DNA of 63,850 bases, the filler included, from Folioceros fuciformis (Eukaryota): NCBI GenBank assembly GCA_049999805.1. It is 12 parts of 12 records of this genome, joined end to end, with 100 filler letters (N's around TTAATTAATTAA, not from the genome) between each part and the next. Parts side by side here need not be neighbours in the genome. Positions count along the whole stretch, not along the records: positions 1 to 26,518 come from JBNGIO010004891.1; 11 more parts are not named here. The stretch is one strand, 5' to 3'. Under the pieces are notes generated by a model. The model saw only the letters and a list, made by a program, of their open reading frames with translations, searched no databases and was not told the origin of the DNA. The translations under genes were made by a program, and so were the position numbers. Within the stretch, counting starts at the first letter, position 1. Each line of letters begins with the position of its first letter. This document shows positions 2,220-62,235 of this stretch, piece by piece.

Positions 2220-5200
2220 TTAGGTTTGCTTAACTAATAGGTCAGTCATAACTTCACGGATGCCCAAAGTTTTCATATGTCTGAGGTGTAAATCCCTGCC
2301 TAATGACTTGGTTAATAAATCAGCTGGATTTTCCTGGGTTGGTTTATAATTTATATCTATTGTCTTATTTTCTAACATCTCACGTATGTAATGATACTCC
2401 ACAGCTATATGCTTTGTCCTGGAGTGGAAGACAGGGTTTCTAGCTAAAGCTATCGCTCCCTGACTATCACTGAAAAGAGGTGTGGGCTCATTTTGAGGAT
2501 AACACAACTCACTCAATGCTAGCCTACTCCAGACTATGTCCTTCGAGACTGAGGTTAGTACTCTATACTCTGACTCGGTACTTGACAAAGCAATAGTAGG
2601 TTGTTTCTTACTTGACCATGAGATGGGAGCACCTGCAAGTAGTAGGACGTAACCTGATACTGATTTTCGACTATCTGGGTCTCCAGCATAGTCAGCATCG
2701 GCATATGCCTTTATTTGTAACTTGGATATGCCTGATGTTTGTTTATATTTGAGCCCTGTGTGCATAGTCCCTTTGAGATACCTGAAAATCCTCTTGACGC
2801 ATTGCCAATGTTGTTTGCCAGGATTCTCCAAAAATTGTGAGACCGCACTAACTTCAAATGATATATCAGGTCTTGTGAAGTTACTCAAATAGATTAATGT
2901 ACCAACAGCGTGTCTATATGGTACTGCTGACATCTCGATTTTTTCAGCTTCAGTCTTAGGGCTCATTTGTAAAGTGAGCTTGATGCCACTAGGAAAAGGT
3001 GTGGCAGCGGGTTTAGCGTCTTCTAGTCCAAACTTGGCTAAACTCTCTTTTATATATTTTGTTTGAATTAGGGAGATAGATTTGTCATTTCTATCTCTAA
3101 TAATATTAACTCCTAAGGCATAGGTAAGTTCTCCCAAATCTGTCATTTCATAATGACTTCTTAACCAAGCTTTAATCTCAGCTAGGTGTGAAAGGGAGGA
3201 TGATGCCAAAAATAAATCATCCACATAAAGTAATAGATAAACTGTATTTTGTTTTGTCTTCAATATATATAAGCTTGCATCAGCCTTACTTTGAACAAAA
3301 CCATATGTAATCAGCTTATCATGTATTACATTGTTCCATTCCTTGCCAGATTGCTTTAAGCCATAAATGCCTTTTATTAATTTGCATACCATGTTTTCTT
3401 TGCCTTTAACTTCATATCCCTCAGGTTGCTTCATANNNNNNNNNNNNNNNNNNNNNNNNNNNNNNNNNNNNNNNNNNNNNNNNNNNNNNNNNNNNNNNNN
3501 NNNNNNNNNNNNNNNNNNNNNNNNNNNNNNNNNNNGAGCGGATAAGGCAATTATAATTCTGAGAGAGGCAAACTTAGCTACTAGAGCATAAGTAGCCCAG
3601 GGTATGTAATCTAAACCCGGTATCTGGGTAAAACCTCTGGCTACTAGTCTTGCCTTATATCTCTCAATGGAACCATCACCCTTTCGTTTAATTTTAAAGA
3701 CCCATTTACTCCCTACGATTTTTCTCCCTTTGGGTGGTTTAACTAATTCCCATGTAGAATTCTTAACTAGGGAATCATACTCAGAGTCCACTGCAGCTTT
3801 CCATAAGTCCTTCTCGGGAGAAGTGAAAGCTTGTTTAAGGGTCAGTGGCTCTTCAGGATCAATTGTAGCTTTGTAAACAGATTGATAAAAATGGGAGAAA
3901 GGTGAGGAGGGATCATCAAAAGTGGTGAGGTATCCTAAAGGTGGTTCCTTCCATCCTGCAGGGCCAGAAATAACAGGTCTGGTCCTTAGGTTGTACCTTG
4001 GTGCAGGTTGCTCTACGTCGTCGACGATTGGATTCTCTGTGTGTACAATATCTTCATGTGCTGGTTCTTGTAATGAAGGAACCAGTTCCTCAATATCCGG
4101 ATAGTCAGGCTCATAAATATCATCCAGGTGTTGAGGAATTTCCAGATCTGGATCTGGAGTAGTAGGTCGTCGCGGAGAAGATGGCTCCTCCTCCTCCTGC
4201 ACAATAGGTTCAACTGGAGGAGAGGAAGGAAAAGATTGAATGCTGATAAACTCATCATCATCAAAAGATGTGGGTACAGTATTGTCGTCAGGAACATAGA
4301 CAGAAGAGTAGGAGTCCACTGGGGAGAAGAGTGGAGATTCATGAAAAGTAACGCTGCGGGCATAAATGAGTTTCCTTGTAGCTGGATCAAATAACTTGTA
4401 TCCTTTAATACCTTCTGTATAACCAATAAAGGTGTACTTGGCAGCCTTATTATCGAACTTCTTACGCTGTGCTTTAGGAATATAAACATATGCCGTACAG
4501 CCAAAAACCCGAAGGTGGTCGATGGAAGGCTTTCTGCCAATGAATGCTTCATAAGGTGTCATACCCCGAACTGCTGAGGTGGGCAGTCGATTGAGAAGAT
4601 ATGTTGCCGTTATCATTGCTTCTGCCCAATATGGTTTAACTAACCGGGCTTGGGAAAGCAAGCAACCTGTTATCTCTTGAAGACGTAGATTCTTATTTTC
4701 TGCTACGCCGTTTTGCTGAGGGGTATAAACCACCGTGAATTGCTGAGCAATACCTTGAGCTCGACAAAAATCTGTAAAAGCATTAGAGATAAACTCGCCT
4801 CCATTATCGGAACGGAGGGTTTTGAGTTTCTTCTCTGTAAGTCGTTCTGCCCACATCATGTAATCCTTGAAGTATTGAAAAGCTTCACTTTTGTGCTTGA
4901 GGATTGTGGTAAAACGGGAATAATCATCAATAAAAGTAATAAAATATCTGCAGCCGCTGAAAGATGGTGCAGAAATTGGGCCACAAATGTCGGTGTGAAC
5001 CAACTCTAAGGGTACCTTGGCCCGCTGAGGAGAATTGTTTTTGAAAGGGGCTTGATGTCTTTTAGTAAGGACACAAGCTTCACACCATGATAATGGTTCT
5101 ATCTTTGGAAGGGAAGGGTGTCTATAAAGGTTTCCCTTAGACATTTGGACAAGCTTTTGGCTATTAGGATGTCCTAATCTACAATGCCAAAGTAAAGTAG

Positions 5201-6677
5201 TGTTGGACGTGATAGAGTTCTGAGAAGCTAAATTAACTCTATCATGTGATGATTCTACTTGGACTGCAAGTTTATATAACCCGTCCTCTATTGTGCCTGT
5301 GCAGATATTGAGAGATTCACTAGGAGAGTAAGTGAGAAGACAACTATCTGCATCTAAAATGACTTGTATGTTATGTTCTATGCATAAACAAGTAGCTGAC
5401 ACTAAATTCTTACACATGGCTGGTACATGAAGAACATTGGAAAGAACAAGGATTTGACCAGAAGAACATCTGAGTTTTATCGAACCTATACCAGAAATAG
5501 GAAGGTTATGATCATCACCTAATAAGACACTCTGATGTCCTGTAACAGAATTATAAGATTGATACAGACGTCTATTATTACAGATGTGTGCAGTGGCTCC
5601 ACTATCCAAGTACCAGTTTGGATTTGATGACTTTGATGAAGTCAAACATACAGTTAGAGCCGAAGGTGTTGTGGAAGATGTCTTCTTCACAGCTATATGA
5701 GCTCCAGGCGCAGCCTCTTTTCTAGGCTCACCATTTTTCTTCTTGTAACAGTCCTTCTCCAGGTGGTTTGGTATTCTGCACCAATTACAAATGATGCCTT
5801 TCTTCTTGGTACCTTTAGCAGGTGTTGAAGAAGAAGTCTCTCGTCTTCGAGAGTTGTCATTGGAAGTCTGGGGTCGATATGAAGTGGAACCTCGGCCTCT
5901 GCCTCGTCCTCTTCCATTACCCCTTCCAGTGAACATCACCTGTTGCTTATTGGTTCTGGAGTGTCGCCGACTTGATTCCTCTTGCATCAATGCTCCTATG
6001 AGCTCGGCGATGCTGAGCTTAATTTCTGCTTGTGGATTCTCATCTGCCTCACGTCTTGCATTACGGAGAACAGCATTTTGAGTTGTAACAAAAGCTCTAT
6101 AAGACGGCGGTAAAGATGATAGAAGGATAACATATGCTTCCAACTCATGGACAGGAATGCCACTTGCAGCCTCAAGTTGAGATCTTGCTAGTCGGAAATT
6201 ACTAATATGGCGTTCAATGGAATCGGACTCCTTCATTTGAAGGTTGCGGAAATTACGGGAGGCGGCAACAATACTCATAACATCCATGGAGGAGTAGAGT
6301 TGAGCAAGGTGAGTCCACATGTCGTGGGAGGTCTTTGCATGACCAACTTGTATCACCATCTGCTCCGAAAGTCCACTGATGATAAGGTCTTGTGCCTTCT
6401 CGTCCCTGACGTCCCAGGACGTTCGAAGGTGTACTTCAAATCTTTCAGTGGGTCTGGGAAGTCTTCCTTCGACTATGTCCCAGAGATCTCGTTGTCGCAA
6501 GGCTCCTTTCATCCGTATAGCCCAAACATAATAATTCTTTCCATTGAACCTATCCTTCTCTTTGAAGCTGTCACCATAATGATTAATCAAGGTATGATTA
6601 GAACTCCCAGAAGGATCCATCATGGGTGTATTTGGTGACGCTGAAAATTCTTCTTCAATATTAGATACTCCAGCCAT
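2220..6677 (-). CDS. Copia Gag-Pol polyprotein (Gag, CCHC knuckle, protease, integrase, RT, RNase H)
   Basis: CNWCRIPNHLEKDC knuckle; WYLDSGA protease; WHCRLGH..CEAC; integrase HTDICGP/RSDNGGEF/NGVAE; RT YVDD; RNase H DADYAGD, TESEY, ADLLTK. The 100-N gap at 3436-3535 lies in RT. Confidence 0.97.
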   Translation of the reverse strand: MAGVSNIEEEFSASPNTPMMDPSGSSNHTLINHYGDSFKEKDRFNGKNYYVWAIRMKGALRQRDLWDIVEGRLPRPTERFEVHLRTSWDVRDEKAQDLIISGLSEQMVIQVGHAKTSHDMWTHLAQLYSSMDVMSIVAASRNFRNLQMKESDSIERHISNFRLARSQLEAASGIPVHELEAYVILLSSLPPSYRAFVTTQNAVLRNARREADENPQAEIKLSIAELIGALMQEESSRRHSRTNKQQVMFTGRGNGRGRGRGRGSTSYRPQTSNDNSRRRETSSSTPAKGTKKKGIICNWCRIPNHLEKDCYKKKNGEPRKEAAPGAHIAVKKTSSTTPSALTVCLTSSKSSNPNWYLDSGATAHICNNRRLYQSYNSVTGHQSVLLGDDHNLPISGIGSIKLRCSSGQILVLSNVLHVPAMCKNLVSATCLCIEHNIQVILDADSCLLTYSPSESLNICTGTIEDGLYKLAVQVESSHDRVNLASQNSITSNTTLLWHCRLGHPNSQKLVQMSKGNLYRHPSLPKIEPLSWCEACVLTKRHQAPFKNNSPQRAKVPLELVHTDICGPISAPSFSGCRYFITFIDDYSRFTTILKHKSEAFQYFKDYMMWAERLTEKKLKTLRSDNGGEFISNAFTDFCRAQGIAQQFTVVYTPQQNGVAENKNLRLQEITGCLLSQARLVKPYWAEAMITATYLLNRLPTSAVRGMTPYEAFIGRKPSIDHLRVFGCTAYVYIPKAQRKKFDNKAAKYTFIGYTEGIKGYKLFDPATRKLIYARSVTFHESPLFSPVDSYSSVYVPDDNTVPTSFDDDEFISIQSFPSSPPVEPIVQEEEEPSSPRRPTTPDPDLEIPQHLDDIYEPDYPDIEELVPSLQEPAHEDIVHTENPIVDDVEQPAPRYNLRTRPVISGPAGWKEPPLGYLTTFDDPSSPFSHFYQSVYKATIDPEEPLTLKQAFTSPEKDLWKAAVDSEYDSLVKNSTWELVKPPKGRKIVGSKWVFKIKRKGDGSIERYKARLVARGFTQIPGLDYIPWATYALVAKFASLRIIIALSAXXXXXXXXXXXXXXXXXXXXXXXXXXXXXXXXXXMKQPEGYEVKGKENMVCKLIKGIYGLKQSGKEWNNVIHDKLITYGFVQSKADASLYILKTKQNTVYLLLYVDDLFLASSSLSHLAEIKAWLRSHYEMTDLGELTYALGVNIIRDRNDKSISLIQTKYIKESLAKFGLEDAKPAATPFPSGIKLTLQMSPKTEAEKIEMSAVPYRHAVGTLIYLSNFTRPDISFEVSAVSQFLENPGKQHWQCVKRIFRYLKGTMHTGLKYKQTSGISKLQIKAYADADYAGDPDSRKSVSGYVLLLAGAPISWSSKKQPTIALSSTESEYRVLTSVSKDIVWSRLALSELCYPQNEPTPLFSDSQGAIALARNPVFHSRTKHIAVEYHYIREMLENKTIDINYKPTQENPADLLTKSLGRDLHLRHMKTLGIREVMTDLLVKQT

Positions 6678-6687
6678 AGCAGGTGAT

Positions 6688-7263
6688 CTAGAGGACTAAG
6701 CCTCGGCGGTACAGCTTTCCATCTTCTCTATTGCAAGCTCGAAACTCCTCCCTTGCATGGTAACCTGCATCAGGAGATGATGACCTACTAGAAAGTTCCT
6801 GCACATCTTTGAATTTAGAGAGATTGGACACCCTTACCCCAAGTTCTGTTAGTTTTCTCTTGAATTCAAGATGTTGAATTGTTAGAGAAGATAATTCTCT
6901 ATCTAGGTCATGAATTTGGTGAGTTTCTATATTTTGGCCTTGTAGACAAAAGAATTTAGAAGCGTTAGCACCAGCTCTCAAATTAGGGATATGTTGAATA
7001 GCTAATTCTAAGGCCTTAACATGGATTGGGCTAAATACTTCTAGCAAATCACATCTAGCAAGCTTAATCAACTTCCCTTGGTCTGGTTTAGAAATTAGAA
7101 TAGATGCAATGAAGTTAGCTATGCGAGAAGATATCTCATCTATCTCTCTTGCTATAATTTGTGAACTTCTATTGCTCTTAATCCTAACTTGATCTTGTTG
7201 TCTTGCAGGGCAATTTCTTTTCCTAATTCTAGGCCTCCTCCTATTAAAATAAATCAAATTCAT
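6688..7263 (-). CDS. Extra sense ORF (191 aa) between PBS and gag; basic N-terminus, probably helical/coiled-coil
   Basis: ATG-initiated 191-codon frame in AT-rich DNA, ending 10 nt before the gag ATG. A similarly placed ORF precedes another gag at 52824-53357. Confidence 0.6.
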   Translation of the reverse strand: MNLIYFNRRRPRIRKRNCPARQQDQVRIKSNRSSQIIAREIDEISSRIANFIASILISKPDQGKLIKLARCDLLEVFSPIHVKALELAIQHIPNLRAGANASKFFCLQGQNIETHQIHDLDRELSSLTIQHLEFKRKLTELGVRVSNLSKFKDVQELSSRSSSPDAGYHAREEFRACNREDGKLYRRGLVL

Positions 7264-10155: not shown

Positions 10156-11307
10156 TACTGCAAGGTTGACCTTTGGCTTGGTGACAACCACAGGTGTTGG
10201 AGCTTGTGCAGCGAGTAGTAGAGAGGGTTGAGATGACATTGTTGTATATTGAGAAGAGGAAATAGAAGAGTCCACCAAGGTTGGGAGGTCCATTGTTCTT
10301 CAATGAAAAAAATTGAACCAAACAAGGAAAACTTGCAATAGGCCCAAGCCCAAGTTGCAAGCAAGGCAAGCGGCATGCGGAGAGGACAACCTGCAAGCAA
10401 GGATGGCCTAAGAACAACAATGTGAGCAACTCAATTCTCGCAGGGTCGCAATGGAGGTGGGCTGCAAGAAAGGTAGGTTGCAAAGAAGGCGGGCTGCAAT
10501 GGAGGTGGGCTACAAACAAGGCAGGGTGCGATGGAGGAGGGCTTTCTTGTGAAAGACTATCCGATACTTGCGAACATATGGGATCGGTGTTCCCATGACG
10601 GGAAGACTGACCTAATATGTACAATGGTCATAATGAATAAGACTTACTAAAATGGTAAATGGTTCGTCGACAACAGTTGTAGACAGAAACTTCCGTTTGC
10701 GGATGTTGCCGACGAACCACCTTAAAAACAAGGTTATCCGGTATATAAGGGATGGACGGAGCATGCCACAAACGCAATGTAAACACTACTAGAGATTTTG
10801 CATAAGGAGCGACTCACGAGAGCTTGCTCCTAGTATTAGAGCTAGTGTAATTTAGCTTTGAGCATAAAATAAATAGTCACTAAAAGAGTAAAGGAAGCAT
10901 AAGAATAAAAAGAGGCTTAGTCTTGCTCTACTAAGAGCATTTCCTATGCTCTAAGAACACTTAGTGCTAAGAGAGCTTAGGATGTGAGAACCTCTTAAGG
11001 TGTGTGCTTTGAGAGAGCTTTTGTGGAGAGAGCGAAGTGGAGAGAGAGTTAAGGCAAAGATCGGAGTTCTCTCTAATCTTTGATGTGTTCTTGTTAACCC
11101 GTGGAGAATTCCCCTCTTCCTATGTGTTCACTCATAGAGAACTCCCATCCTTCTCTCTGCTCTTATTAACTCATGGTTGAGTAACAAAGAGCAGTAAGAG
11201 TGCTATAAGCCGTCCTCTCATAGTTGCTTATGGTTAGTCTATGATCCTCCTCTCTTAGCTGCTAACTATGAGTCTTCCAAGGACAGGAGGATGGGCTATT
11301 TGAAGGC

Positions 11308-11560
11308 CTAATGCTGGTGATTGGTGTCCTTAGTAGTCTAGTGTTGGTGATTGGTGTCCTTAGTAGCCTTAGTAGTTGAATGCTGGTATGCTGTGTTCTT
11401 AGTAGCCTAGTGTTGGTATATTGTGTTCTTAGTAGCCTAGTGTTGGTATATGGTGTCCTTAGTATCCGAGTGCTAGTGTCTAGTGTTGGTGTCTATTGTC
11501 CTTCGTAGACTAATGCTGGTGTTTTGTCCCTAGTGACTTAGTAGCTTAGTGCTAGTGTTT
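11308..11560. repeat. Degenerate ~30-bp tandem array inside an LTR-like segment (about 10778-11610)
   Basis: Repeated CTAGTGTTGGT(G)ATTG(G)TGTCCTTAGTAGC units. Confidence 0.75.
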
Positions 11561-12098
11561 GTTGTTTGGTGTTTCTCATTTAGGAGAGCTCTCTTGGAAT
11601 AATGTCAGCATACTTAATCTGAAAATTTTAAAAAATAATAGTAATTTAAGATATTTAATCTAAAAGCTTTCTACAACAAAATTTAAATGATGTAAGATAT
11701 TGAATCTATTTTTAAATAATTTGATAAATTAATATTAAACCTTTTTAAAACAAAAATGAGATAATTTAGTGTTTTTCTAGCAATGAGAAACAAGATTTAG
11801 ATCGATTAGTCTTCTCCTTGCACTAAGTTTGATAATTTTACTAATTACAATTTTTCTTGACTTGTGCAAATATATATTGTGGGTTACCATCGGCTCCTGC
11901 TCATTGGAAACTTGAGGCCACGGACTCCAACCCACACAGATTGATTGGCTGATGTGTAGGAGGGTTATGATTATGTTATCAATTATTTACAACCAAATTA
12001 AATTTTTGACATGCCTTAAAGGCTGGAGTCACTATCCACATTCCAGAGTGCTGACTAAAAATTTAAAGCACCCCACACAATTTCCTCCAGAGTACTGA

Positions 12099-14950
12099 CT
12101 ACAAATTTATGGCACCACACACAAGTTCCTCCACATAATCGGCAAGCACAAAGTCATAGATTTCCCTCAATCGCACTAACGCCCGTTCCCTCTCCTTATC
12201 GGATGGATTCTCAAGCTGAAAGTTGCTCTTTATGAACTGCTCAAATCCTGACCTGGCTTCGAACTGCAGTCACACACACAAGACTTCAGCAGTGAGTTTC
12301 GAAAAAGTTGACGATGCGATATGTCTGCGAACTGAATGGAAGCTGCAAACACTCTTGTCCCGAGAAGAACTGTTTTTAAAGATCCCAATGGCGGGTATTA
12401 CTGGCAACTCATTTAGAGTGTTGGCATGCTGATCAGCTAGCCTTGCACTGATATACCGAGGGCAATTGCTTGTTCTGCCTTCAATAATTTGCATAATAAG
12501 ACACAACAATATATCAACACATACGATTATCTATCAGCCCTACAGTCTTAAGAGAAAGCGAAGAATTTCGTACTGCAAAGGTAGTAGAAGTGAGACAACT
12601 ACAACAAATACAATGACCATCAGTGAAGGGAGCACAAACTGCATAGTGCATGATCTGACGACCCATATTCTGCGTTGGGCAACAGCCACAAAACAAACCT
12701 AGCTGTGTAGGAACACCAAAAGCACCAACTATGAGCAGCCTAGACTCCTAGACGCGTTACCTGAGCACGACCTCCAGCATCATAGGACGCCCTCGCAAGG
12801 CCACTCAAGTCAACTTCATGACTGACTACTTGTAGTTTCCCTGTCGGCACCTGCTTGCCCTTCGTGCGCAAATACTCATACACCGTCCTTACGCAGAAAC
12901 GGTCGTCTTCCACAAGCTGTGCTCCTGTCACTTCACAAGAGTGATGGCAAATTACTGGCAGGCCCACTCCATAACTAGCACAGTTCAGTATCTGAGTTAG
13001 TAATAGTGCAGAAGTAACGCAAATCTCTCAATTTTATCCCTTTAGCAGGATAAGAGAGTATGAAAATTCAAAATTCTGTTCAGGCGTGAAAACGTTCTCA
13101 AAATCTGTCAGCTGCAGTCCAGAGTGGCAAAAAGGGTGAGACAACGGTATCCCTTTAAGCCAAGGACCTGCACCATTGATAGCCAGCCAAGCATTCATCA
13201 TCAATAGGTCACCCGCCATTGAAAGTTGTCCCCAAACCCCGAACTTGAAAGACAGCCGACACACATGGAAACATCCCACGGCAGAGTGCTATTCAGGAAG
13301 GCAGTGCCTTGTCCCAGTTCATAAGCTGTGAGATTACCTCCAAGCCCCATCTTCTATTTCCAGCCTTGCTGCAGGGACGACAAGGTCAGACTTACAAGCA
13401 TGGGAATGCTGGTGGCCGTGCCCATGGCCTGACTCAATCGAGGCCAGTTCTCGATCCTGTGCATCAGTCCAGCCCGGTTCATATGCTTCTAGGAAGGCCT
13501 GCTTAGCCTTGTTAGGCAGGTCGTGAGGATGTACGAAGGGTACCCCAGGAGGCCATCCCATCTCCACTCTCATACCAGAACACGGGCTATCCATAGAGTT
13601 AATATGCTGCTCTTCACACTCTTTGAAATTACAAAACTTGATCTTCAGGCCCTTCGTATCAGCAATCTCTTGCACTCTTTCTTTTAGAACTCTTTGAGCC
13701 TCCAAGCGCAATTGCTTGGAGGGAGCTAACGGTTTGCCTCTCGATACCTGCTTCCTCCGCTTCATTGCTGAGGCCTTCAGGGTACCTGCAGGTAAACCTT
13801 CCAGACCAACTATTTGATTGTCAGTGAGCAATCAACTCTATGCGGACTATCAAAGAAACATTAGCAACATGAGACAGTGCACGGTTTGGCACATACTTTC
13901 GGTTGGCGGTGGGAAAGCAAAACTTGATACACCCGACCGGGCCATGAGCTGCTCCATCGAGTGTGTCCTCTGCATGAACTCCTGGACAGCTAGAGGTGTT
14001 GAATATGGACTTCCAACATTATGTCCTGCAGCAGTCATTGGCCCGCAATGTAAGATTGCGGTTGCCCGTGGCATCAACTTGAAGGAAATGTAGCACCTCC
14101 CAAATATGTTCTCGTGACCCCCAAGTGTCTCTGTTTTGTGTAATGCCGGCAACAAGTACCCAGCAGTCGCCTGGAACAGCGTCAGGCCGGAATATAACAC
14201 CATTTCGTGAGGTCCCAAGTCAGCATCCACCAGCGTCCACCTTCCCTGTAAGTCGCGAATTTGAAGGCCAGGTTTGTCCGATTTCATGAGGGTGAGCAGG
14301 CCCTTGTCTACTTGAGGTTCAGGATCGTCATACAGAGGCATGTGGCTCTCCTGTCCAGGAAGTGCATGGAGCCCATGGGAAGAATGGACTCCAGGCCTAC
14401 CATAACAGCAGGCTGAAAGAACAGATGTCGAAACCTCTCCAGGCCGTAGGGGCACATTATCCAGGAGCTCAGTGAAAGAAAAGCTCCTGAGCTCGAGTGA
14501 GCAAGCAATGGCATCCAGCAGACTACGGGCAGCCTTGCCTAAGAAGGCAAAGAGTTCTGGCAAGCCAAAAGGGGCAAGCTCCGCTCCACTCGTAGCCTCG
14601 ACTGAACTTCTTCCAGGTCTGTAATCGAAAAGTTCCCTCATATGCTGGGGTTCTGCAAAATAACCAGCCGTGCGATTCCAGTCCTGAGGGTCCTCCGAAT
14701 GCACACTTTCGGCACCTGGTGGCGCTCGATGATGGAAAAACATCCTCACAGAATCCAGAACACAACGCAACAACACGTCATCTCCCGGAGTGAGTTGAAT
14801 CACCACAGCATTGAATCTTTGCAGTGACTGAGAGAGTATTGACACAGCATTCCGATATTGTTCCGTCTGTAGTCCATCAACAGCGACTATGTCCGCAAGC
14901 CGCACCCGGCCCACAGTTGACATGCCTTGCCCTCCCAGAGACACAGCCAT
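12099..14950 (-). CDS. 2OG-Fe(II) dioxygenase-fold protein (Arabidopsis At3g12940-like family, from memory) with NLS-like KRRK and C-terminal ARID-like domain; about 600 aa
   Basis: Exons 14950-13897, 13785-13396, 12954-12761, 12263-12099, all GT-AG and in frame. Family motifs GRVRLADI, VDKGLLTL..SDKPGLQIRD..GRW, LRLEAQRVLKERVQ, GWPPGVPFVHPHDLPNKAK. Exons 1-2 are secure; exons 3-4 are inferred. Confidence 0.85.
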
Positions 14951-26518: not shown

Positions 26519-26618
26519 NNNNNNNNNNNNNNNNNNNNNNNNNNNNNNNNNNNNNNNNNNNNTTAATTAATTAANNNNNNNNNNNNNNNNNNNNNNNNNN
26601 NNNNNNNNNNNNNNNNNN
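26519..26618. other. Artificial contig linker N44-TTAATTAATTAA-N44 (first of 11)
   Basis: The same 100-nt spacer with stops in all six frames starts at 26519, 29290, 32648, 35029, 39962, 44381, 47624, 49269, 53372, 59368 and 62136. Confidence 0.97.
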
Positions 26619-29289
26619 TTCTTTTACAGGATGGCACTGTCAGAACTTTGAAGCAAGTCCTACACATTCCACAAATGGTGAAAAATCTTATGTCTGTCAG
26701 GCATGTCTGCAAGGAGTGGAACGTTAATGTTAGTTTTGATCAAAACCAATGTAGGATCATGGATGCCGACAGCCAGTCAGAAATTACCCTTGGCGTGCTT
26801 GACTCAGATTTATATCGACTCAATTGTCGAACTTTTGTTGAAGGACAAGTGCAAGCACAAATTGCCAAACGATTGGATCCAGATAACGAGCTGCAGCTCT
26901 GGCACTGTCGACTGGGACATCCAAATTATAAGAAGTTAAGTACTATGGTTGGCAGTAATATATATCAAGACGGCATACCTTGGAAGCTGCAGGAGACTGA
27001 TGTGCTATGTGAGGCTTGTTTACATGCGAAGCTTCCCAAGCAAAACGCTAAGATACCACATAAACAAAATAGAGCAGCCAAAACACTTGATATGGTGCAT
27101 ACTGATTTATGTGGGCCAATGTCGGTCAGATCTCTGGGAGGAGCGTCATATTTCATGGTGCTCGTGGACGATTACAGTCGTTTTACTATGACATATTTTC
27201 TGCATCACAAGTCACAGGCCTTTGAGAAATTCGTGGATTATGTCAATTACTCTCAGAGACAAACTGGTAATAAATTGAAAGTACTACGAAGTGACGGAGG
27301 TGGAGAATTTACCAGCACAGAATTCCAAGAGTATTGTAGATCCCTTGGAATAAGCAGACAAATTACAGTGCCTTATACCTCTACCCAGAATCCTTTGGCA
27401 GAGTCGAAAAATAGGTACCTGCAGGAAGCAGCGAAAGCCATGTTATTTCAGTCTGGTTTGTCTAAGAGATACTGGGCTGAGGCAGTTCACACTGCCACTT
27501 ACATTCAGAATAGACTACCAGCAGTAGCCTTTAAGGACTCAACACCTTTTGAGCGCTGGACAGGGAGAAAGCCGACTATATCTCATCTTAGAATATTCGG
27601 CTGTAAAGCTTTTATACACATCCCAAAAGAAGTTAGAACCAAACTGGATTATAAAGCTAAACAAGTGCTATTTATCGGATATTCAGAAGGAGTTAAGGGT
27701 TATAAGGTGTATGACCCGGGCTCAAGAAAAGTAACACATGCACGCTTTGCGAAATTTGATGAGAGATCGGTCCTCACTGGTGCTTCACAACTCGGGAAGC
27801 AGGATGTGGTGTCTGATAAAGAAAATCTAGAAAAGAGTGAACTTACTGCGTTTTATGATGAACAGTATGAACAAAATGAGCAACTAACGGAATTCAGCGT
27901 CGAGACAGATGATCATTTGAATCACCAACAGGCTGATGGCATAGATGGCTTAATTGAGAAGCTTGATATCACAAATTATCAAGATAATGATGACTCAGAT
28001 GTACATCAGGAGGATTTCTCAGCAGTGGGAGCAGATGTAGAGAGTCAGCAGGTAGAAGTGACTACTAACGTTAGCCATGAGCAAAGACAAGAACCTGCAA
28101 TGACTCAGTTGCGTAGATCTTCACGAACTCATACTTCATCACCTCTGGAGTGGAAGGAGGTGCCTTACGCTATGGAGGGTCATTTGCCAGTTTCGGCTCT
28201 GTTAACACAAGTTTTTATGGCAGCTTCAGATCTGGGAGAGCCACAAACATACCAGGAGGCCATTACCTCAGCAGATAAAGAAAAATGGCAGGAGGCAATA
28301 AATTCTGAATACAATTCCTTAATTGAAAATCAAACCTGGGTTCTTGAAGACTTACCTCACGGTAGGACACCAATATCGAATAAATGGGTCTTCAAGCTCA
28401 AGCTTAATCCAGATGGATCCACTTCTCGCTTTAAAGCTAGGTTAGTGGTTCGAGGATTTTCACAACGAGAGGGCATTGACTACAATGAAACTTTTTCTCC
28501 GGTTGTGCTGGCCTCATCTGTTAGGACACTTTTGGCCATAGCAGCTTTAAAGGGTTTTCATGTCCATCAGATGGACGTACAAACGGCATTCTTAAACGGT
28601 ATATTAGAAGAAACTGTGTACATGACACAGCCTGAGGGTTTTGTCAGTAAAAAATTCCCTAACCGGGTCTGCAGGCTAAAGAAAACTCAGTATGGTCTTA
28701 AGCAATCACCCAGAAGATGGAACAGAAGACTACGTACACACTTGCTTAAGCATGGGTTCACACAATCGGAATCAGATGAGAGCGTATATGTGTACGGACA
28801 GGGTGATGAACTCGCATACCTGGCAGTATATGTTGATGATACTCTGATCCTTGGTTCATCGATGCAGATTGTAGAAAGAGTAAAACGCATGTTGTCATCC
28901 GAATTCAAGATGACAGACATGGGACCATGCACTTTCTTTTTAGGAGTGCAAGCTGTAATTAACAGGCAGTCAGGCACTATCATGTTGCACCAAAAACATT
29001 ATGTTAACAGGTTATTAGAAAATTTCAAGATGCAGGATTCCAAACCGGTATCCACCTCGTCTGCAACAGGAATTTTTCTAACTAAAGATCAGTGCCCCAA
29101 AGACCAAGCTGAGCTAGATCAGATGGCAGGTGCTCCATACCGTACCTTAGTTGGATGCTTGCTCTGGCTCAGTTCATGGACTAGACCTGATATTGCGTTC
29201 TCGACATCCGTGGTCTCACAATTCTTAGCCAATCCCGGTCAACAGCACTGGACAGCGGCAAAGCGGATACTGCGATATCTCAAGGGTAC
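26619..29289 (+). mobile_element. Copia pol fragment (protease end, integrase, RT), open across the whole contig
   Basis: WHCRLGHPN, HTDLCGP, RSDGGGEF, QMDVQTAFLNG, YVDD. Confidence 0.95.
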
Positions 29290-29389
29290 NNNNNNNNNNN
29301 NNNNNNNNNNNNNNNNNNNNNNNNNNNNNNNNNTTAATTAATTAANNNNNNNNNNNNNNNNNNNNNNNNNNNNNNNNNNNNNNNNNNNN

Positions 29390-32300
29390 TGTGGGAATAT
29401 AGCTGAGACTGATCATCTTGTTTGCAATTGCATTTCTTATGAAATGTTGCTTCACCTCCACATGTCTAGTCCGAGCATGTGAGATAGGATTCCTGGCTAT
29501 CGCAATGGCGGACTGATTGTCACAATACATTGGCGTCGGCTCCCGCTGCTAGTAGCCTAGGGTATCCAGGAAGTTCCGTAAGTGCATAACTTCTTGGGCT
29601 GCGGCTGTAGATGCCACATACTCGGCCTCCGTGGACGAAAGTGCAACCATTGTCTGCTTCTTTGAAGACCAGCTAACTAGGCCCCCACACACCTTTATGC
29701 AATATGCTGAAATGGACTTACGTGAATCACCAGCCCAATCGGAGTCCGTCTTACATTCCATCCAAACTCTTCCAGTATCCCCTTGCTTGCTGTACAAGAG
29801 CCCTAGGTCAGATGTGCCTTTCAAGTACCTGAGGACACGCTTGGCAGCTATCCAATGCTGTTGTCCTGGATTGGCTAGGAACTGTGAGGCAATTGACGTG
29901 GCATGGGCAATATCAGGTCTGGTCCATCCACTCAACCATAGCAAGCAACCTACAAGAACCCTGTACGGTATGTTCTCCATCTCCTTTTGCTCAGCAGGTG
30001 TCTTGGGGCACTGATCTTGTGTCAGGGTAGCCCCCACTGCAGCTGGAGTTGCTGCCGGCTTCGCATTTTGCATATTGAACTTCTCAAGTAGTCTATTGAC
30101 ATAATGTTGTTGGTGGAGAAACACACTTCCTGTCGTTGAGTTCATGAGTGCTTGGACACCTAAGAAGAATTTGCAAGGGCCCAAATCTGTCATTTTGAAT
30201 TCTGATGACAAGATACGCTTTACCTCTTTTACCATGCCATCATCGGATCCAAAAATGATTGTGTCATCGACATACACCGCTAGGTAGGCAGTCTGCCCTT
30301 TCTTCTTATATACATAGACACTACCATCAGCATCTGATTGCTTAAACCCTCTCCTTACAAGGTATGCATGTAGCCTCAAATTCCACCCACGATTCGATTG
30401 TTTGAGGCCGTACTGAGTCTTCTTCAGCCTGCAAACCTTGTTTGGGTGCTTGGCATCAATGTAACCCTCAGGCTGTATCATGTATACCTCTTCTTCAAGG
30501 AGGCCATTAAGGAATGCTATCTATACATCCATCTGGTGGACATGATAACCTTGCTGGGCAGTAATGGCCATGAGTGTTCTTAATGATGACGCGCGCACAA
30601 CAGGGGAGAAGGTCTCATTATAGTCTATCCCTTCTCTTTGGGAGAATCCACGCACCACTAGTCTAGCCTTGAATCTAGCTGTAGTGTCATCAGGGTTGAG
30701 TTTTCTTTAAAATACCCATTTGTTTGAAATTGGGCTCCTTCCATGAGGTAAATCAACTAATTCCCATTACTCATTCTCAATGAGAGAGTCATACTCTGAT
30801 TGGATCGCTGCCTGCCATTGCTCCTTCTCTGGTGAGTTGATGGCTTCTTTGTAGGATGCTGGTTCACCAAGGTCTTGGGCTGCTCTGAGTATTTGAGCTA
30901 GCATGGCATTCGTGTTTGCATTAGGCTGTATGTGCCCTTCCATGGCAAGTGGCACTTGACTCCATTCCAGGGGAGAGCTTGTGTGATGTCTCGTTGACCT
31001 CCTAAGCGTAGCAAACTGACCAGGTTCAGGCTGTGTTGGTACATTGGTATCAGCTTCATCCTCACTTGCACTGGCCTCAAATGCATCATCAACATCAGTG
31101 TCAACTTGTAATGGTGGATTTAGGCCTGGAGCTGAGGTATGGCTTGGGGCTTGTGGTAGAGCTGCTTGTGGCTGACTCACACTTGGGATTATTTGCTCAA
31201 TTTCAGAGTCACTATCGCTATGGAGTTCAGCAACCTGAGGGTCAGGCATCACATCCTTTCTCCCCCCCTCTCGGGCACAAGTCGCAACCAGCAAGTTGTG
31301 TTCATCAAGTATACCAACACGGGTGTGAGTAACATGGCCGGAGGTAGGGTCATATACCTTGTACCCTTTGATACCCTCAATATATCCAATGAAGGTCATA
31401 GCACGGGCCTGGTAATCCAGCTTCCTCCGTTGGGTCTTGGGAATATGCATATACACACGGCTGCCAAATATTTTCAGATGTGAGATGGAGGGTTTACAAC
31501 CAGTCCACCGCTCATATGGGGTAGCTCCTATGAAAGAGGAGGTAGGCAGACGATTTTGCACATATGTTGCAGTTTGAACTACATCAGCCCAATAGTGCTT
31601 GGATAAACCGATTGATATAGCATGGCCTTGGCTGCTCCTTGGAGGTATCTGTTTTTCGCCTCTGCCAATGGGTTTTGGCTGGACGTATGCGAAGAAGTCA
31701 GCTGACGGGCAATGCCAAGAGAACGACAGTATGACTGAAAATCGCCGCTAATAAATTCGCCCCCATTATCAGTCCTAAGCACCTTGAGAGTTTTCCCGGT
31801 TTGTCGTTGAGAAAAATCCACAAACTGTTTGAGCATTTCTAGAGCCTCACTCTTATGTCGCAGGAAATATGTGACAGTATATCTACTGTAATCATCAATG
31901 ACAGCCATAAAATAAAGGGAACCACCAAGAGATGGTGTTGACATTGGTCCACAAAGATCCGTATGGATCATTTCCAATAGGTCAGAAGCACGGTTCTGCT
32001 CACCCTTCTTAGGCTTCTTCTTGACCATCTTACTATGAATGCAAGCGCCACATAATACATGTGTATCAGTAATCTTCCAATCGAGTTTCTCACGGTACAG
32101 CTCTTGCTCTGTCATCCGTTTCATCTTTATGAAGTTTGGATGTGCAAGCCTTGAAAGCCACAGGAGCTGAGGATCATCATGTGTAAGACATTTAGCCAAC
32201 ATGTCTTGAGATGTTGAGTGGGCCTGTGGATGTCCAGCAGGTGACGTGATACAGTCCAACTTGTATAAATTAGCCTGCAAGGTACCGAGGGCCAGGATGT

Positions 32301-32647
32301 GGTCTGTCGGCGTCTCTCGCAGCTCACAGTGTTTTTCGCTGAAAGAAATATTGACCATCCAGTCCCTGCAAAGATGCCGAACTGATAGTAGATTTTTACA
32401 CATCTGTGGAACGTGTAGCACTTGGTGAAGCAGGCGGGTGGATCCATCTTGCAGCTGAATTTGCACTGTGCCGCAGCCAGCAACTGCAAGTCCACTCCCA
32501 TCTCCAAGTAGGACAAGCTGTCCAGGTGCATAGGTGGTATAGTTGATGAAGCCTTCTCGCATGTAGCATATGTGCGCGGAGGCACCTGAGTCGACAAACC
32601 AATGATCTTGAACAGCCTTGGTGTGTGCGAGGAACACAGTAAGGATG
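29390..32647 (-). mobile_element. Degenerate copia pol (PR-INT-RT-RH), related to the 26.6-kb copy
   Basis: WFVDSGA, HTDLCGP, YVDD, TEAEY, CDNQSA; stops and frameshifts. Shares the linker motif RRS.R.HTSSPLEW..VP.AMEGH with 26619-29289. Confidence 0.93.
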
Positions 32648-32747
32648 NNNNNNNNNNNNNNNNNNNNNNNNNNNNNNNNNNNNNNNNNNNNTTAATTAAT
32701 TAANNNNNNNNNNNNNNNNNNNNNNNNNNNNNNNNNNNNNNNNNNNN

Positions 32748-59467: not shown

Positions 59468-62073
59468 AATTAGGCGTGGCCGGGATGGCCTTAAGGCATG
59501 GAGAGAGTGTGCACCGCTTCATCGTAGCGGTTAGGGTTGCGACTCTCTCTAAAGACGTGACTCCTATGAAACGCTCCCAGCGTTTCATACCCTGGCTTTA
59601 TGCCCTAATAATAAATAATTAATTAAGTCTGGTTATTAAATGCATAACCTATTCATGCTTTTTTTCATACTCCCACTTAGCCGGACTTTGTTAATTTTTT
59701 GACTCTTCGTCTTCAGTCTGCAGCTAGGGTTTGCTCCCGCTTAGGGCCGCCGTCATGGATTCCTCCACTGATGGCTAGGTTCAGGTCGCTTGCATGCTGT
59801 TGCTGGTCATCGTGTTGATCCTTCTTGCGTTCCATCGGCGGAATCCCTGCTCCTTATGCATCGAGTTTGCCAGATCACAGAGTGCTGAGTCTGGCTTGGA
59901 GGCAGCGCACGCTCGGTAAGGCGCCTGCAGGGATTTCCTCAACTAGTACAAGATGCGCCTTTTTAGAATGCTCCCAATTGCATGGACCGCTTCTTGTACG
60001 CTGGCTCAGACTTCACAGACGAAGGGCGACTCATCCTGAGGTATGGTGAGCTCTCCACAGGCTTCTGCGATGTTGCTCGCTGCTGCTTTCCTTCCGTTTG
60101 CTGTTCTGACCATCTTCTGCCTTGCGCAGAGCCCTGGTACATGTGCTCCACTAGTGAGGAGAGCAGTTCCCTTGCGTAGACTATATCTTGGGCAGCAGTA
60201 GCTGTAGCAGCGTACTCTGCCTCTGTAGACGATAGAGCAACCACTTGCTGTTTCTTGGAATGCCAAGAAATCACAGTGGAGTCGTATTCATGGGCTCCCA
60301 GTAGCAAGCAATTAGCATAAATGGACCTGCGTGTGTCGGCATCTGCTGCCCAGTCAGCGTCGCAGAAACATGTCAGCAGCAGATCTTTTGGTCATTGTCT
60401 GTACAGCAGGCCAAGTCTCGGCGTGCCCTTCAGGTATCTCATCACCCTCTGTACAACTGCCCAATGTGCTGGTCCATAACATGTTAAGAACTGAGAGGTT
60501 ACTCCCAGTGCGTAGGACAAGTCAGGTCTCGTCCAATTTCTGCAGTAAATTAGTGAGCATACAGCTGACCTGTATGGAAGATTTTCCATTTGCTGCCTCT
60601 CTGTCTCTGTTTTAGGTGCCTGCTCAACACTCAGCTTATCACCAATGGCCATCGGCGTTGCAGCAGGTTTGCAGTCAGACATCCTGTATCGAGCTAACAC
60701 CTGGTTGATGTACTGAGCCTGATGTATGAAGACTGTGTGCTGTTCCATGTCTTGCAAGATTTCTATGCCGAGGAACCATGTGAGCTTCCCCAAGTCAGTC
60801 ATGGAAAACTCAGAGGTGAGTATAGATTTGACCTTGGCCAAAATCTTTGGGCTGCTGGCAATGAGGACAGCATCGTCCACGTATAGAGCCAGAAAGACTA
60901 CTCCGTCTTTCTCCTCCAACTTGTACACATTTGAGTCAGATTTAGATTGCAGAAACCCTGACTGCTTAAGGTACGTGTCGATGCGTTTGTACCAGGCTCG
61001 TGGGGACTGTTTTAGTCCGTAGATTGTCTTAATGAGCCTGCATACCTTTCCTGGCTGCTTGGTGTCTACAAAACCTTCTGGCTGATTCATGAAAATCGTT
61101 TCTTCCAGGGTTCCATTCAAGAAAGCAGTCTTCACGTCCATGTGTTCCATGGCGTAATCTCTTTGTGCTGCAATTGCTAATAATGTGCGAACAGAGGTTG
61201 CCCTGACTACAGGTGAAAAGGTTTCTGTATAATCCAGGCCCTCCACCTGGCTATACCCTCTTGCCACAAGTCGAGCCTTAAACCGCGCTATACTACCATC
61301 AGCAGCAAGCTTCTTTTTAAATACCCACTTGCAGGTTACAGGTTTCCTGCCAGCAGGTAAGTCCACCAGTTCCCACGTCCTATTATCAATCAGAGACTGG
61401 TACTCTGATTCAATTGCAGCAGCCCACTTTGCAGCTTCTGGACCGCTGACTGCTTCTTTGTATGACTGTGGCTCATACAGATTATCTGGTGCACTATAAT
61501 CCTGCACCAGAAACGAACTGTATGAGAGAGGTGGTGTTACCCATTCGTCGGGTGAGGCAGTGTGCTTCCTGCTGCTTCGTCTTGGACCCACAGCTTCTGG
61601 AGCTGATTCCACCTCTACTTCAGATGAAAAACCCTGTTCAGTTTGTGTATCGACAGCCTCCTCATGACTGCCAGTATGGCTGTCACCTGTATCCTCCTCA
61701 TTTGGATTACCAGCAACTATCTCAGCTTGGGTGTCATTAGAAGCTTCTCCATCATCGTCATCCGGAAAAATACTTGCAGGCTGGTTGACTGCAACTGCAG
61801 GTACGTGTGCGTACTGAGTTGTAGTACTTGTGTGCTGGAAGGTCTCCTCACTACTTTCTCTTTCTGATGCCTCACTTGTGGATGCAATCTGTGCAGGGAT
61901 CCGCTCTGGAAGCTCAGGTTGAGGTACGAGCAGAGTCAACTCGTCGAATACCACACTCCGGCAATGAGTTATGCCTCTGGTGAGCGGGTCCATCAATTTG
62001 TACCCCTTGATTCCTTCCGTGTAGCCTACAAACACGTACTTGCGTGCCTTGTAGTCGAGCTTGACTCGCTGAT
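59468..62073 (-). mobile_element. Copia INT end, RT, RNase H (aberrant C-terminus), PPT 59670-59678 and partial 3' LTR
   Basis: HMDVKTAFLNG, YVDD, CDADWA, TEAEY; PPT AAGTGGGAG. Confidence 0.9.
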
Positions 62074-62235
62074 TGTGAACCTCCAAAGTTTGGGGTAGTA
62101 GTTTGTTTTGGTTGAAAAAGGGTTAATAGTGGTATNNNNNNNNNNNNNNNNNNNNNNNNNNNNNNNNNNNNNNNNNNNNTTAATTAATTAANNNNNNNNN
62201 NNNNNNNNNNNNNNNNNNNNNNNNNNNNNNNNNNN

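Follow-up and report, generated by a model that had tools for sequence, protein, structure and literature searches.

Here we describe an intact protein-coding gene of Folioceros fuciformis (NCBI GenBank assembly GCA_049999805.1) whose predicted product begins with an oxygenase-like domain and ends in what appears, from its homologues, to be an ARID domain. The gene lies on the minus strand at positions 12,099 to 14,950 of the DNA that we analyzed, a stretch of 63,850 nucleotides in which 12 parts of 12 genome records are joined by filler (hereafter the window, in whose coordinates all positions are given), within the part that comes from JBNGIO010004891.1. It reads in four exons from an ATG at 14950 to a TAG stop codon at 12099-12101. 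In the models built by joining the exons by coordinate, the reading frame stays open, every intron is bounded by GT and AG, and the product is 592 to 608 amino acids long. Exon 1 (13897-14950) holds 351 codons, ends in a phase 1 donor (GTATGT), and encodes a domain predicted to adopt the double-stranded beta-helix of the IPNS-like 2-oxoglutarate (2OG) oxygenases. Exon 2 (13396-13809) encodes a central module and closes with a second phase 1 donor (T/GTAAGT). Exon 3 (12761-12930), between the acceptor gaag/TG and the phase 0 donor CAG/GTAACG, and exon 4 (12099-12263), which opens at the acceptor ctgcag/TTC and runs to the stop codon, together carry the ARID-like domain. Intron 1 (13810-13896) has a length of only 87 nucleotides, which is divisible by three, and it shares the frame of the exons on either side, but it contains stops. 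An alternative, in-frame acceptor for exon 2 at 13785 scores 7 bits better against the hidden Markov model (HMM) of the family than the one at 13809 (957.9 versus 950.9 bits), and the exon may begin at either.

The position at which exon 3 begins required more careful placement. The first-pass annotation of this DNA, made from the sequence alone, had joined exon 2 to exon 3 across 13396/12954, and that acceptor is indeed open, AG-bounded and in frame, adding eight codons to the product; the conserved acceptor, however, is the one that lies 24 nucleotides past it, at 12930. Splicing at 12930 yields HA-L-TGAQLVED, to be compared with the HA-L-TGAP-x-VED of the spliced homologues, and unspliced genomic open reading frame (ORF) fragments from other species (P0071, P0073, P0074 and P0087) read ..EVTGAP.. 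across the same acceptor site; it is because of these two sets of readings that we place the acceptor at 12930 rather than at 12954. The 20 nucleotides upstream of 12930 are 65% pyrimidine as against 45% upstream of 12954, and the family HMM scores the two models at 950.9 and 942.9 bits, respectively.

The other proposed junction, 12761/12263, stood unchanged: it is a GT-AG junction in phase 0 that coincides exactly, with zero gap, with the GGRAQ/FEA of nine long homologues. On the minus strand, 12761-12952 and 12102-12263 translate, residue for residue, into the peptide first reported for this region, and the reported absence of the last exon from the ORF track is explained by its position within a stop-to-stop ORF of 56 amino acids (12099-12269), under the 60-amino-acid default of an ORF list. 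When four long homologues were compared with the window by tblastn, they gave three colinear blocks on the minus strand (14941-13433, about 12949-12758, and 12266-12111), with E-values of 2e-22 to 2e-12 for the exon 3 block and 8e-14 to 9e-12 for the exon 4 block. Identity to P0066, the homologue in the first row of our domain alignment, is 66% for window exon 3 and 56% for exon 4. Because the blocks are colinear and the exons abut without a gap on the homologues, exons 3 and 4 are more than a chance pair of open frames, and we infer from the homologues and the splice signals that they are spliced into the transcript. Two other accounts of these exons were rejected. They do not form a separate downstream gene, as the fusion is found in at least nine named species, and the locus is not a pseudogene, given its open frame and intact splice sites, even though its ARID part has diverged further than that of other bryophytes. 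An imperfect 44-bp tandem duplication (12042-12133; 2.1 copies, 87% matches) takes in the stop codon together with the final codons of exon 4. The C-terminal tail ..EELVCGAINL recurs a short way downstream in the altered form ..EEIVWGALNF, and the duplication leaves the ARID core untouched.

The domain encoded by the last two exons makes up the C-terminal 105 or so amino acids, and at the level of the family it is a divergent but genuine ARID-fold domain, as judged from profile matches in the homologues and from a predicted structure. Its first half (12761-12892), which aligns with residues 21-64 of P0066, holds helix 1, a conserved basic loop or hairpin (KGKQVPTGKLQVVSHEVD), helix 2 and a GG motif. 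The second half (12135-12263, within exon 4) holds helices 3 to 6, with a helix-loop-helix that reads GFEQFIKSN, FQLENPS and DKERERALVRLREIYDFVL, and has a phenylalanine at the canonical tryptophan position. Among 25 homologues scanned against Pfam, the ARID family PF01388, whose gathering score is 24.1 bits, was the best match in 19 (9 of 15 in one set and 10 of 10 in another). Of the six proteins in the first set that gave no such match, five lack the region altogether and one, P0024, holds only the exon 3 part. Seven of the 19 matches pass the gathering score (34.0, 28.7, 27.6, 26.5, 26.2, 25.5 and 24.7 bits). The matches cover profile positions 6-88 of 89, with E-values down to 4.1e-8, and the match in P0066 spans residues 21-107; 12 of the 14 rows of the domain alignment match, and ARID is essentially the sole Pfam family to do so.

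Structure prediction points the same way. An AlphaFold model of the orthologue P0066 (16 sequences; mean predicted local distance difference test score, pLDDT, 83.6; predicted template modelling score 0.72) places helices at residues 21-30, 49-59, 62-67, 70-78, 86-103 and 105-117, with a hairpin at 41-46 after helix 1. The six-helix ARID core, with its helix-loop-helix and the loop or hairpin past helix 1, is thus present in the model, which is that of an orthologue rather than of the window protein. When the model was searched against the PDB with Foldseek, ranks 1 to 15 were exclusively ARID domains (probability 0.63-1.00, template modelling (TM) scores 0.47-0.60), among them those of ARID3A, BAF250b, JARID2, ARID4A, Lid, KDM5A/B/D and ADR6. 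The best superposition was on 2cxy, with a root-mean-square deviation of 2.5 Å over 87 columns and 26% identity. The top match of P0066 in a phmmer search of the PDB was ARID4A (E 0.096), and the alignment to the human protein (6l87) sets GFQQF of the family opposite VWKQI. Both the placing of an ARID domain in the C-terminus and the phenylalanine at the tryptophan position had been put forward in the first-pass annotation, and both are borne out at family level. Conservation within the domain is highest in the basic loop KGKPVPTGKPQVVGHKVD, which takes the place of the ARID loop seen to touch DNA in solved complexes, as described in PMC9122586; the helix-loop-helix likewise lies where ARID domains contact DNA in such complexes.

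At the other end of the protein, a search with exon 1 returned 58 homologues, all of them streptophyte, with E-values down to 1e-169. A full-length AlphaFold model of the Marchantia paleacea orthologue P0005 (50 sequences; mean pLDDT 83.4), which is 69% identical to window exon 1, resolves into three confident modules separated by low-confidence linkers at residues 336-364 and 462-479. The N-terminal module of this model gave 203 PDB matches by Foldseek at E <= 0.001, led by the thymine-7-hydroxylase (T7H) of Neurospora (4.1e-15) and followed by CC_0200, rice HIS1, the ethylene-forming enzyme, hyoscyamine 6-hydroxylase, IPNS, ACO2 and GA2ox3. A family profile that includes window exon 1 matched 3on7 in the PDB (E 0.0013), and the nearest atlas clusters to P0005 were solely streptophyte clusters named "2OG Fe(II) oxygenase superfamily" (0.85). 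The oxygenase families PF03171 and PF14226 gave no match at gathering score; the best PF03171 match in the homologues reached 18.2 bits against a cut-off of 23, and window exon 1 had no match at E <= 10. Pfam matches to JmjC, JmjN, PHD or zf-C5HC2 were absent from the window exons and from the 25 homologues, and the structural matches listed for the N-terminal module are IPNS-like enzymes, none of them JmjC. The models and profiles therefore support an IPNS-like 2OG-oxygenase fold that is not of the JmjC type, as had been suggested at first pass.

Whether this domain, described at first pass as having a dioxygenase fold, still works as a dioxygenase is doubtful. The residues of the metal site were mapped by profile alignment to 3on7 and through the family alignment, and were counted over 45 family members (44 for some columns). 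In the window, the position of the HxD motif (14306-14314, minus strand) reads Gln213-Val-Asp215, opposite H-E-D in 3on7, and so the first histidine is absent. Further along the same strand (14090-14140) come the distal His271 (14138-14140), the 2OG-binding Arg285 (14096-14098) and Tyr287 (14090-14092), which stands in for the serine of the RxS motif; the site as a whole is Q213-V-D215...H271 and R285-C-Y287. Across the family, the first column is histidine in only 10 of 44 members (Q in 17, D in 8, R in 4), the acid column is D or E in 44 of 45, and the distal column is histidine in 27 of 45 (Y in 10, L in 4, F in 2). In the algal members, the triad opens with R or K, and its distal residue is Y or K. 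A complete HxD/E...H triad is found in just 6 of the 45 members, namely four liverwort sequences, Magnolia and one further sequence. The 2OG-binding arginine, by contrast, is present in 44 of 44 members, and the RxS serine position is S in 36 of 44 and T in 6 of 44. Because the triad is not conserved, a catalytic role throughout the family appears unlikely; because the arginine is invariant, the alignment suggests that a carboxylate ligand may still be bound.

Between these two domains lies the module encoded by exon 2, and no other part of the protein is as well conserved across the family, which reaches from algae to angiosperms. The module contains an invariant C-x4-C-x3-H-x7-C (13580-13633, minus strand) followed by WP..VPFVHPHDLPNKAK..FLEAYEPGW, and the residues C400, C405, H409, C417, H434, H436, W426 and W454, numbered as in P0005, vary little or not at all over 39-41 sequences. 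AlphaFold folds it into a confident helical domain (pLDDT about 92-95 over residues 370-460 of the orthologue). A single-exon Pfam scan, a phmmer search of the PDB and an atlas look-alike search gave no acceptable match for this module. The two candidates that did surface were set aside: ERCC-8 in the PDB search (E 0.085), which aligned partly on a His tag and is spurious, and the best atlas look-alike, which at 0.84 is too low for more than a lead. The module may bind zinc. At its start, a basic KRRK...KQLR (or KRRK...KRLR) stretch (MKRRKQVSRGKPLAPSKQLRLEAQR; 13691-13765, minus strand) looks like a bipartite nuclear localisation signal.

The ARID domain has a narrower distribution than the rest of the protein. 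Matches to an ARID-region query that bear a species name come from Marchantia paleacea, Calypogeia fissa, Riccia fluitans, Physcomitrium patens (two genes), Diphasiastrum complanatum, Closterium and Mesotaenium; Spirogloea (P0054) also carries the fusion, and a further 33 shorter matches are fragments. The named proteins with an ARID domain are thus confined to liverworts, mosses, one lycophyte and zygnematophyte algae. An exhaustive phmmer search with window exon 3 of 1.84 billion representative proteins found 12 matches, all of the same family and none with another architecture. Judged from these sequences, the fusion of ARID and oxygenase fold is older than land plants. The annotated forms of Adiantum, Cryptomeria, Magnolia, Musa, Oryza and Curcuma end no more than about 25 residues past the exon 2 module, even when the longest annotated isoforms are compared (X1 in Magnolia, Musa, Oryza and Curcuma, where isoforms are named). 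On the evidence of annotated proteins, therefore, ferns and seed plants lack the ARID part, which is not a trait of the whole plant family; on this point the first-pass reading needs qualifying.

Moss sequences (P0011 and P0062; P0016, P0021 and P0020) occur in databases as long, ARID-bearing forms and as shorter ones. P0011 (Physcomitrium) and P0020 (Sphagnum) end after exon 2, P0016 and P0021 after either exon 2 or exon 3, and the forms that end after exon 3 do so by reading into the intron (..GGRAQV..); the short forms may be products of alternative splicing, or else systematically truncated gene models. In a tree of 24 chosen rows, each trimmed to the N-terminal domain, the window pairs with one other sequence (support 100/99), and the pair is weakly sister to the liverworts (82/82). 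More distant relatives of the N-terminal domain are found in Camellia (P0058-P0060; 36% identity), where the C-terminal domain is a different one, PF23112, which on this sequence evidence is a second fusion partner of the oxygenase fold. One of these Camellia relatives is named "U-box domain-containing" by one source.

Four groups of known proteins invite comparison. JARID2, also called Jumonji, is a cofactor of PRC2. As PMC11241480 describes it, its oxygenase-fold domain is inactive through substitutions in the catalytic residues and its ARID domain serves as part of its chromatin targeting, the same pairing of parts as in the present family; the ARID domain of JARID2 (2rq5) ranks fourth among the Foldseek matches of the P0066 model. 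The family differs from JARID2 in that its oxygenase fold is IPNS-like rather than JmjC, it has neither JmjN nor a C5HC2 zinc finger, its parts run in the order oxygenase fold, central module, ARID, and there is no sequence kinship outside the ARID domain; to link it to PRC2 would be pure speculation. The KDM5/JARID1 enzymes (JmjN-ARID-PHD-JmjC) likewise carry an ARID and a double-stranded beta-helix oxygenase domain on one polypeptide, and the ARIDs of KDM5A, JARID1B, JARID1D and Lid are among the top structural matches of the P0066 model. KDM5, however, has a JmjC fold and an intact metal triad, whereas the first iron-binding histidine of the window protein is replaced by glutamine and neither JmjC nor PHD was detected. 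With the triad complete in so few members, and with that glutamine in the window, the inactive JARID2 is therefore the better analogy. The resemblance to JARID proteins raised at first pass, of an ARID domain joined to a non-JmjC fold, thus survives in part, pointing to JARID2 more than to KDM5.

The IPNS-like oxygenases (plant DOXC-type) and T7H share the fold of the N-terminal domain (TM-scores by target length of 0.56-0.71, E 4e-15 to 4e-12) and the RxS arginine. They differ from the family in its unconserved triad, in its PF03171 score, which is below cut-off or absent, and in the central module and ARID domain, which are extras of this family. With the canonical ARIDs (ARID1B/BAF250b, ARID3A/Dead ringer and ARID4A), the C-terminal domain has in common the six-helix core, the loop or hairpin past helix 1 and the helix-loop-helix; it departs from them in its phenylalanine for tryptophan, a longer, family-specific loop 1, an acidic to neutral charge, and other partner domains.

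The explanation that we favor, and consider moderately probable on the strength of the sequences, the models and the analogy, is that the gene encodes a nuclear, non-catalytic protein of dioxygenase fold that is tethered through its ARID domain, following the logic of JARID2. The basic KRRK...KQLR stretch would direct the protein into the nucleus. There, the ARID domain would hold it on DNA or chromatin with low sequence specificity, by way of basic loop 1 and the helix-loop-helix. The oxygenase-fold domain would serve as a ligand- or partner-binding module and is most likely not a working enzyme, because the triad is unconserved and the 2OG-binding arginine is invariant. The central module would bind a ligand or partners without catalysis, and the whole would act as a scaffold or adaptor, much as JARID2 combines an inactive oxygenase fold with an ARID. 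Short isoforms that lack the ARID domain may exist beside the long form.

A number of results weigh against this explanation, beginning with the identity of the domain itself. Each of window exons 1 to 4, scanned alone against Pfam, matched no family at E <= 10, and the ARID identity of the window domain is therefore transitive, through its homology to the family. Twelve of the 19 ARID matches in the homologues fall under the gathering score (23.8-15.9 bits, the lowest being truncated models). The Foldseek E-values of the P0066 domain are weak (0.076-1, with 0 of 155 matches at <= 0.001), and a profile of the family's ARID domain found no ARID domain among the PDB sequences; what it did match (tau repeats, ribosome recycling factor and a PCNA fusion, at E >= 0.012) is noise. 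It might be argued from the missed PDB sequences, and from Foldseek E-values that all exceed 0.05, that the likeness is due to chance or to convergence on a helical bundle. We give that argument almost no credence, as the curated ARID HMM aligns along its entire length and is essentially the sole Pfam family to match, and as nothing but ARID domains occupies the first 15 structural ranks. Whether such a domain binds DNA is a separate matter. The tryptophan in the helix before the recognition loop is highly conserved in ARID domains, and its replacement by phenylalanine is nearly invariant in this family (F71 of P0066, F in the GFEQF of the window), an aromatic-for-aromatic swap. The net charge of the domain is -4 to +1 across the family and -3 in the window, with isoelectric points of 5.1-8.2, and acidic residues flank the loop between the two recognition helices. 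The window also departs from the family at 5 of the 21 domain positions that are invariant in the other 16 sequences (P40L, G44S, K98E, L99I and Q102F in P0066 numbering), and by this measure it is the most diverged bryophyte-grade sequence in the ARID domain. Charge, phenylalanine and acidic flanks would fit a domain that does not bind DNA but serves as a module for interaction with proteins, or RNA, in a protein that need not act at chromatin. We hold this to be unlikely, though it deserves to be taken seriously; the conserved basic loop occupies the DNA-contacting position, and the stretch upstream resembles a nuclear localisation signal; in our preferred explanation the domain would bind DNA or chromatin.

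The two remaining alternatives concern the oxygenase-fold domain and the extent of the product. An active Fe(II)/2OG oxygenase could be brought to DNA or chromatin by the ARID domain, either after the fashion of KDM5/JARID1 or as an oxidase of nucleobases or DNA with a T7H-like fold. The liverwort orthologues P0005-P0008, which keep the full H-x-E...H triad, count against our preferred explanation here, in that activity is possible in some lineages; the invariant arginine and the first place of T7H among the structural matches speak for the same alternative. T7H, however, only tops many near-equal IPNS-like scores, a rank that is uninformative on substrate, and the scarcity of the first histidine, the substitutions at the distal one, the algal residues, the Q-V-D...H of the window and the sub-threshold PF03171 score all make a working enzyme here improbable. 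It could also be that exons 3 and 4 lie outside the main product, and that the usual mRNA ends after exon 2 to give a protein without ARID, as annotated in seed plants. Reading through the exon 2 donor does meet a stop after 22 codons, and many database models, including the moss models P0011 and P0020, end there, which again tells against the explanation we prefer. But both exons read through without a stop, their borders follow the GT-AG consensus and agree in phase, and they are 56-66% identical to the P0066 domain; moreover, nine or more species have annotated long forms, and a short isoform would accompany the long one rather than displace it; we regard this alternative as very improbable. 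A bolder reading, which we offer as a long shot, is that the ancestor of the family was an oxygenase targeted to chromatin, or a 2OG-sensing factor, and that some lineages may have kept this role, with the intact triads of liverworts making them the candidates. A T7H-like domain with an invariant 2OG-binding arginine, joined to an ultra-conserved Cys/His module and an ARID, could act in situ as an oxidase of a nucleobase or of a chromatin protein, or could link the state of chromatin to the level of 2-oxoglutarate, and the ARID would have been lost in ferns and seed plants. If true, the family would be to streptophytes what TET/JBP or KDM5 are elsewhere, though with another oxygenase fold as its basis.

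Directly past the 3' end of the gene lies a stretch of 30% G+C (11500-11999), and beyond that a tandem array of 30 bp in 5.3 copies (11306-11472). Elsewhere in the window are four coding regions of long terminal repeat (LTR) retrotransposons of the Ty1/copia type (gag, integrase, RVT_2), at 2220-6695 (minus strand), 26567-29341 (plus), 29549-32691 (minus) and 60392-62122 (minus). The first of these is a single open frame of 1491 amino acids, and the one at 29549-32691 is broken into several ORFs. A scan of the whole window against Rfam gave no match.

The ARID call is not in itself new to databases, since precomputed Pfam matches and one UniRef name already mark the domain on liverwort orthologues; the domain that the first-pass annotation called hidden is real, but to that extent it was already in view. 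Word searches of open-access texts, a limited means, found no study of a plant 2OG-oxygenase-ARID protein or of its family, and to our knowledge the only other combination of an ARID with a 2OG-oxygenase fold so far described is the JmjC-based JARID/KDM5 group. What the present gene adds is an ARID joined to an oxygenase fold that is IPNS-like and whose metal site is degenerate, in an uncharacterised family that spans zygnematophyte algae to angiosperms. For annotation, it is a reminder that gene models of this family are often truncated, either at the end of exon 2 or at the end of exon 3. Should the protein prove to be nuclear and to bind chromatin, early land plants would have in it a chromatin factor that is as yet unexplored, and the ARID exons, apparently missing in ferns and seed plants, would mark a change in the chromatin machinery of plants that could be dated.

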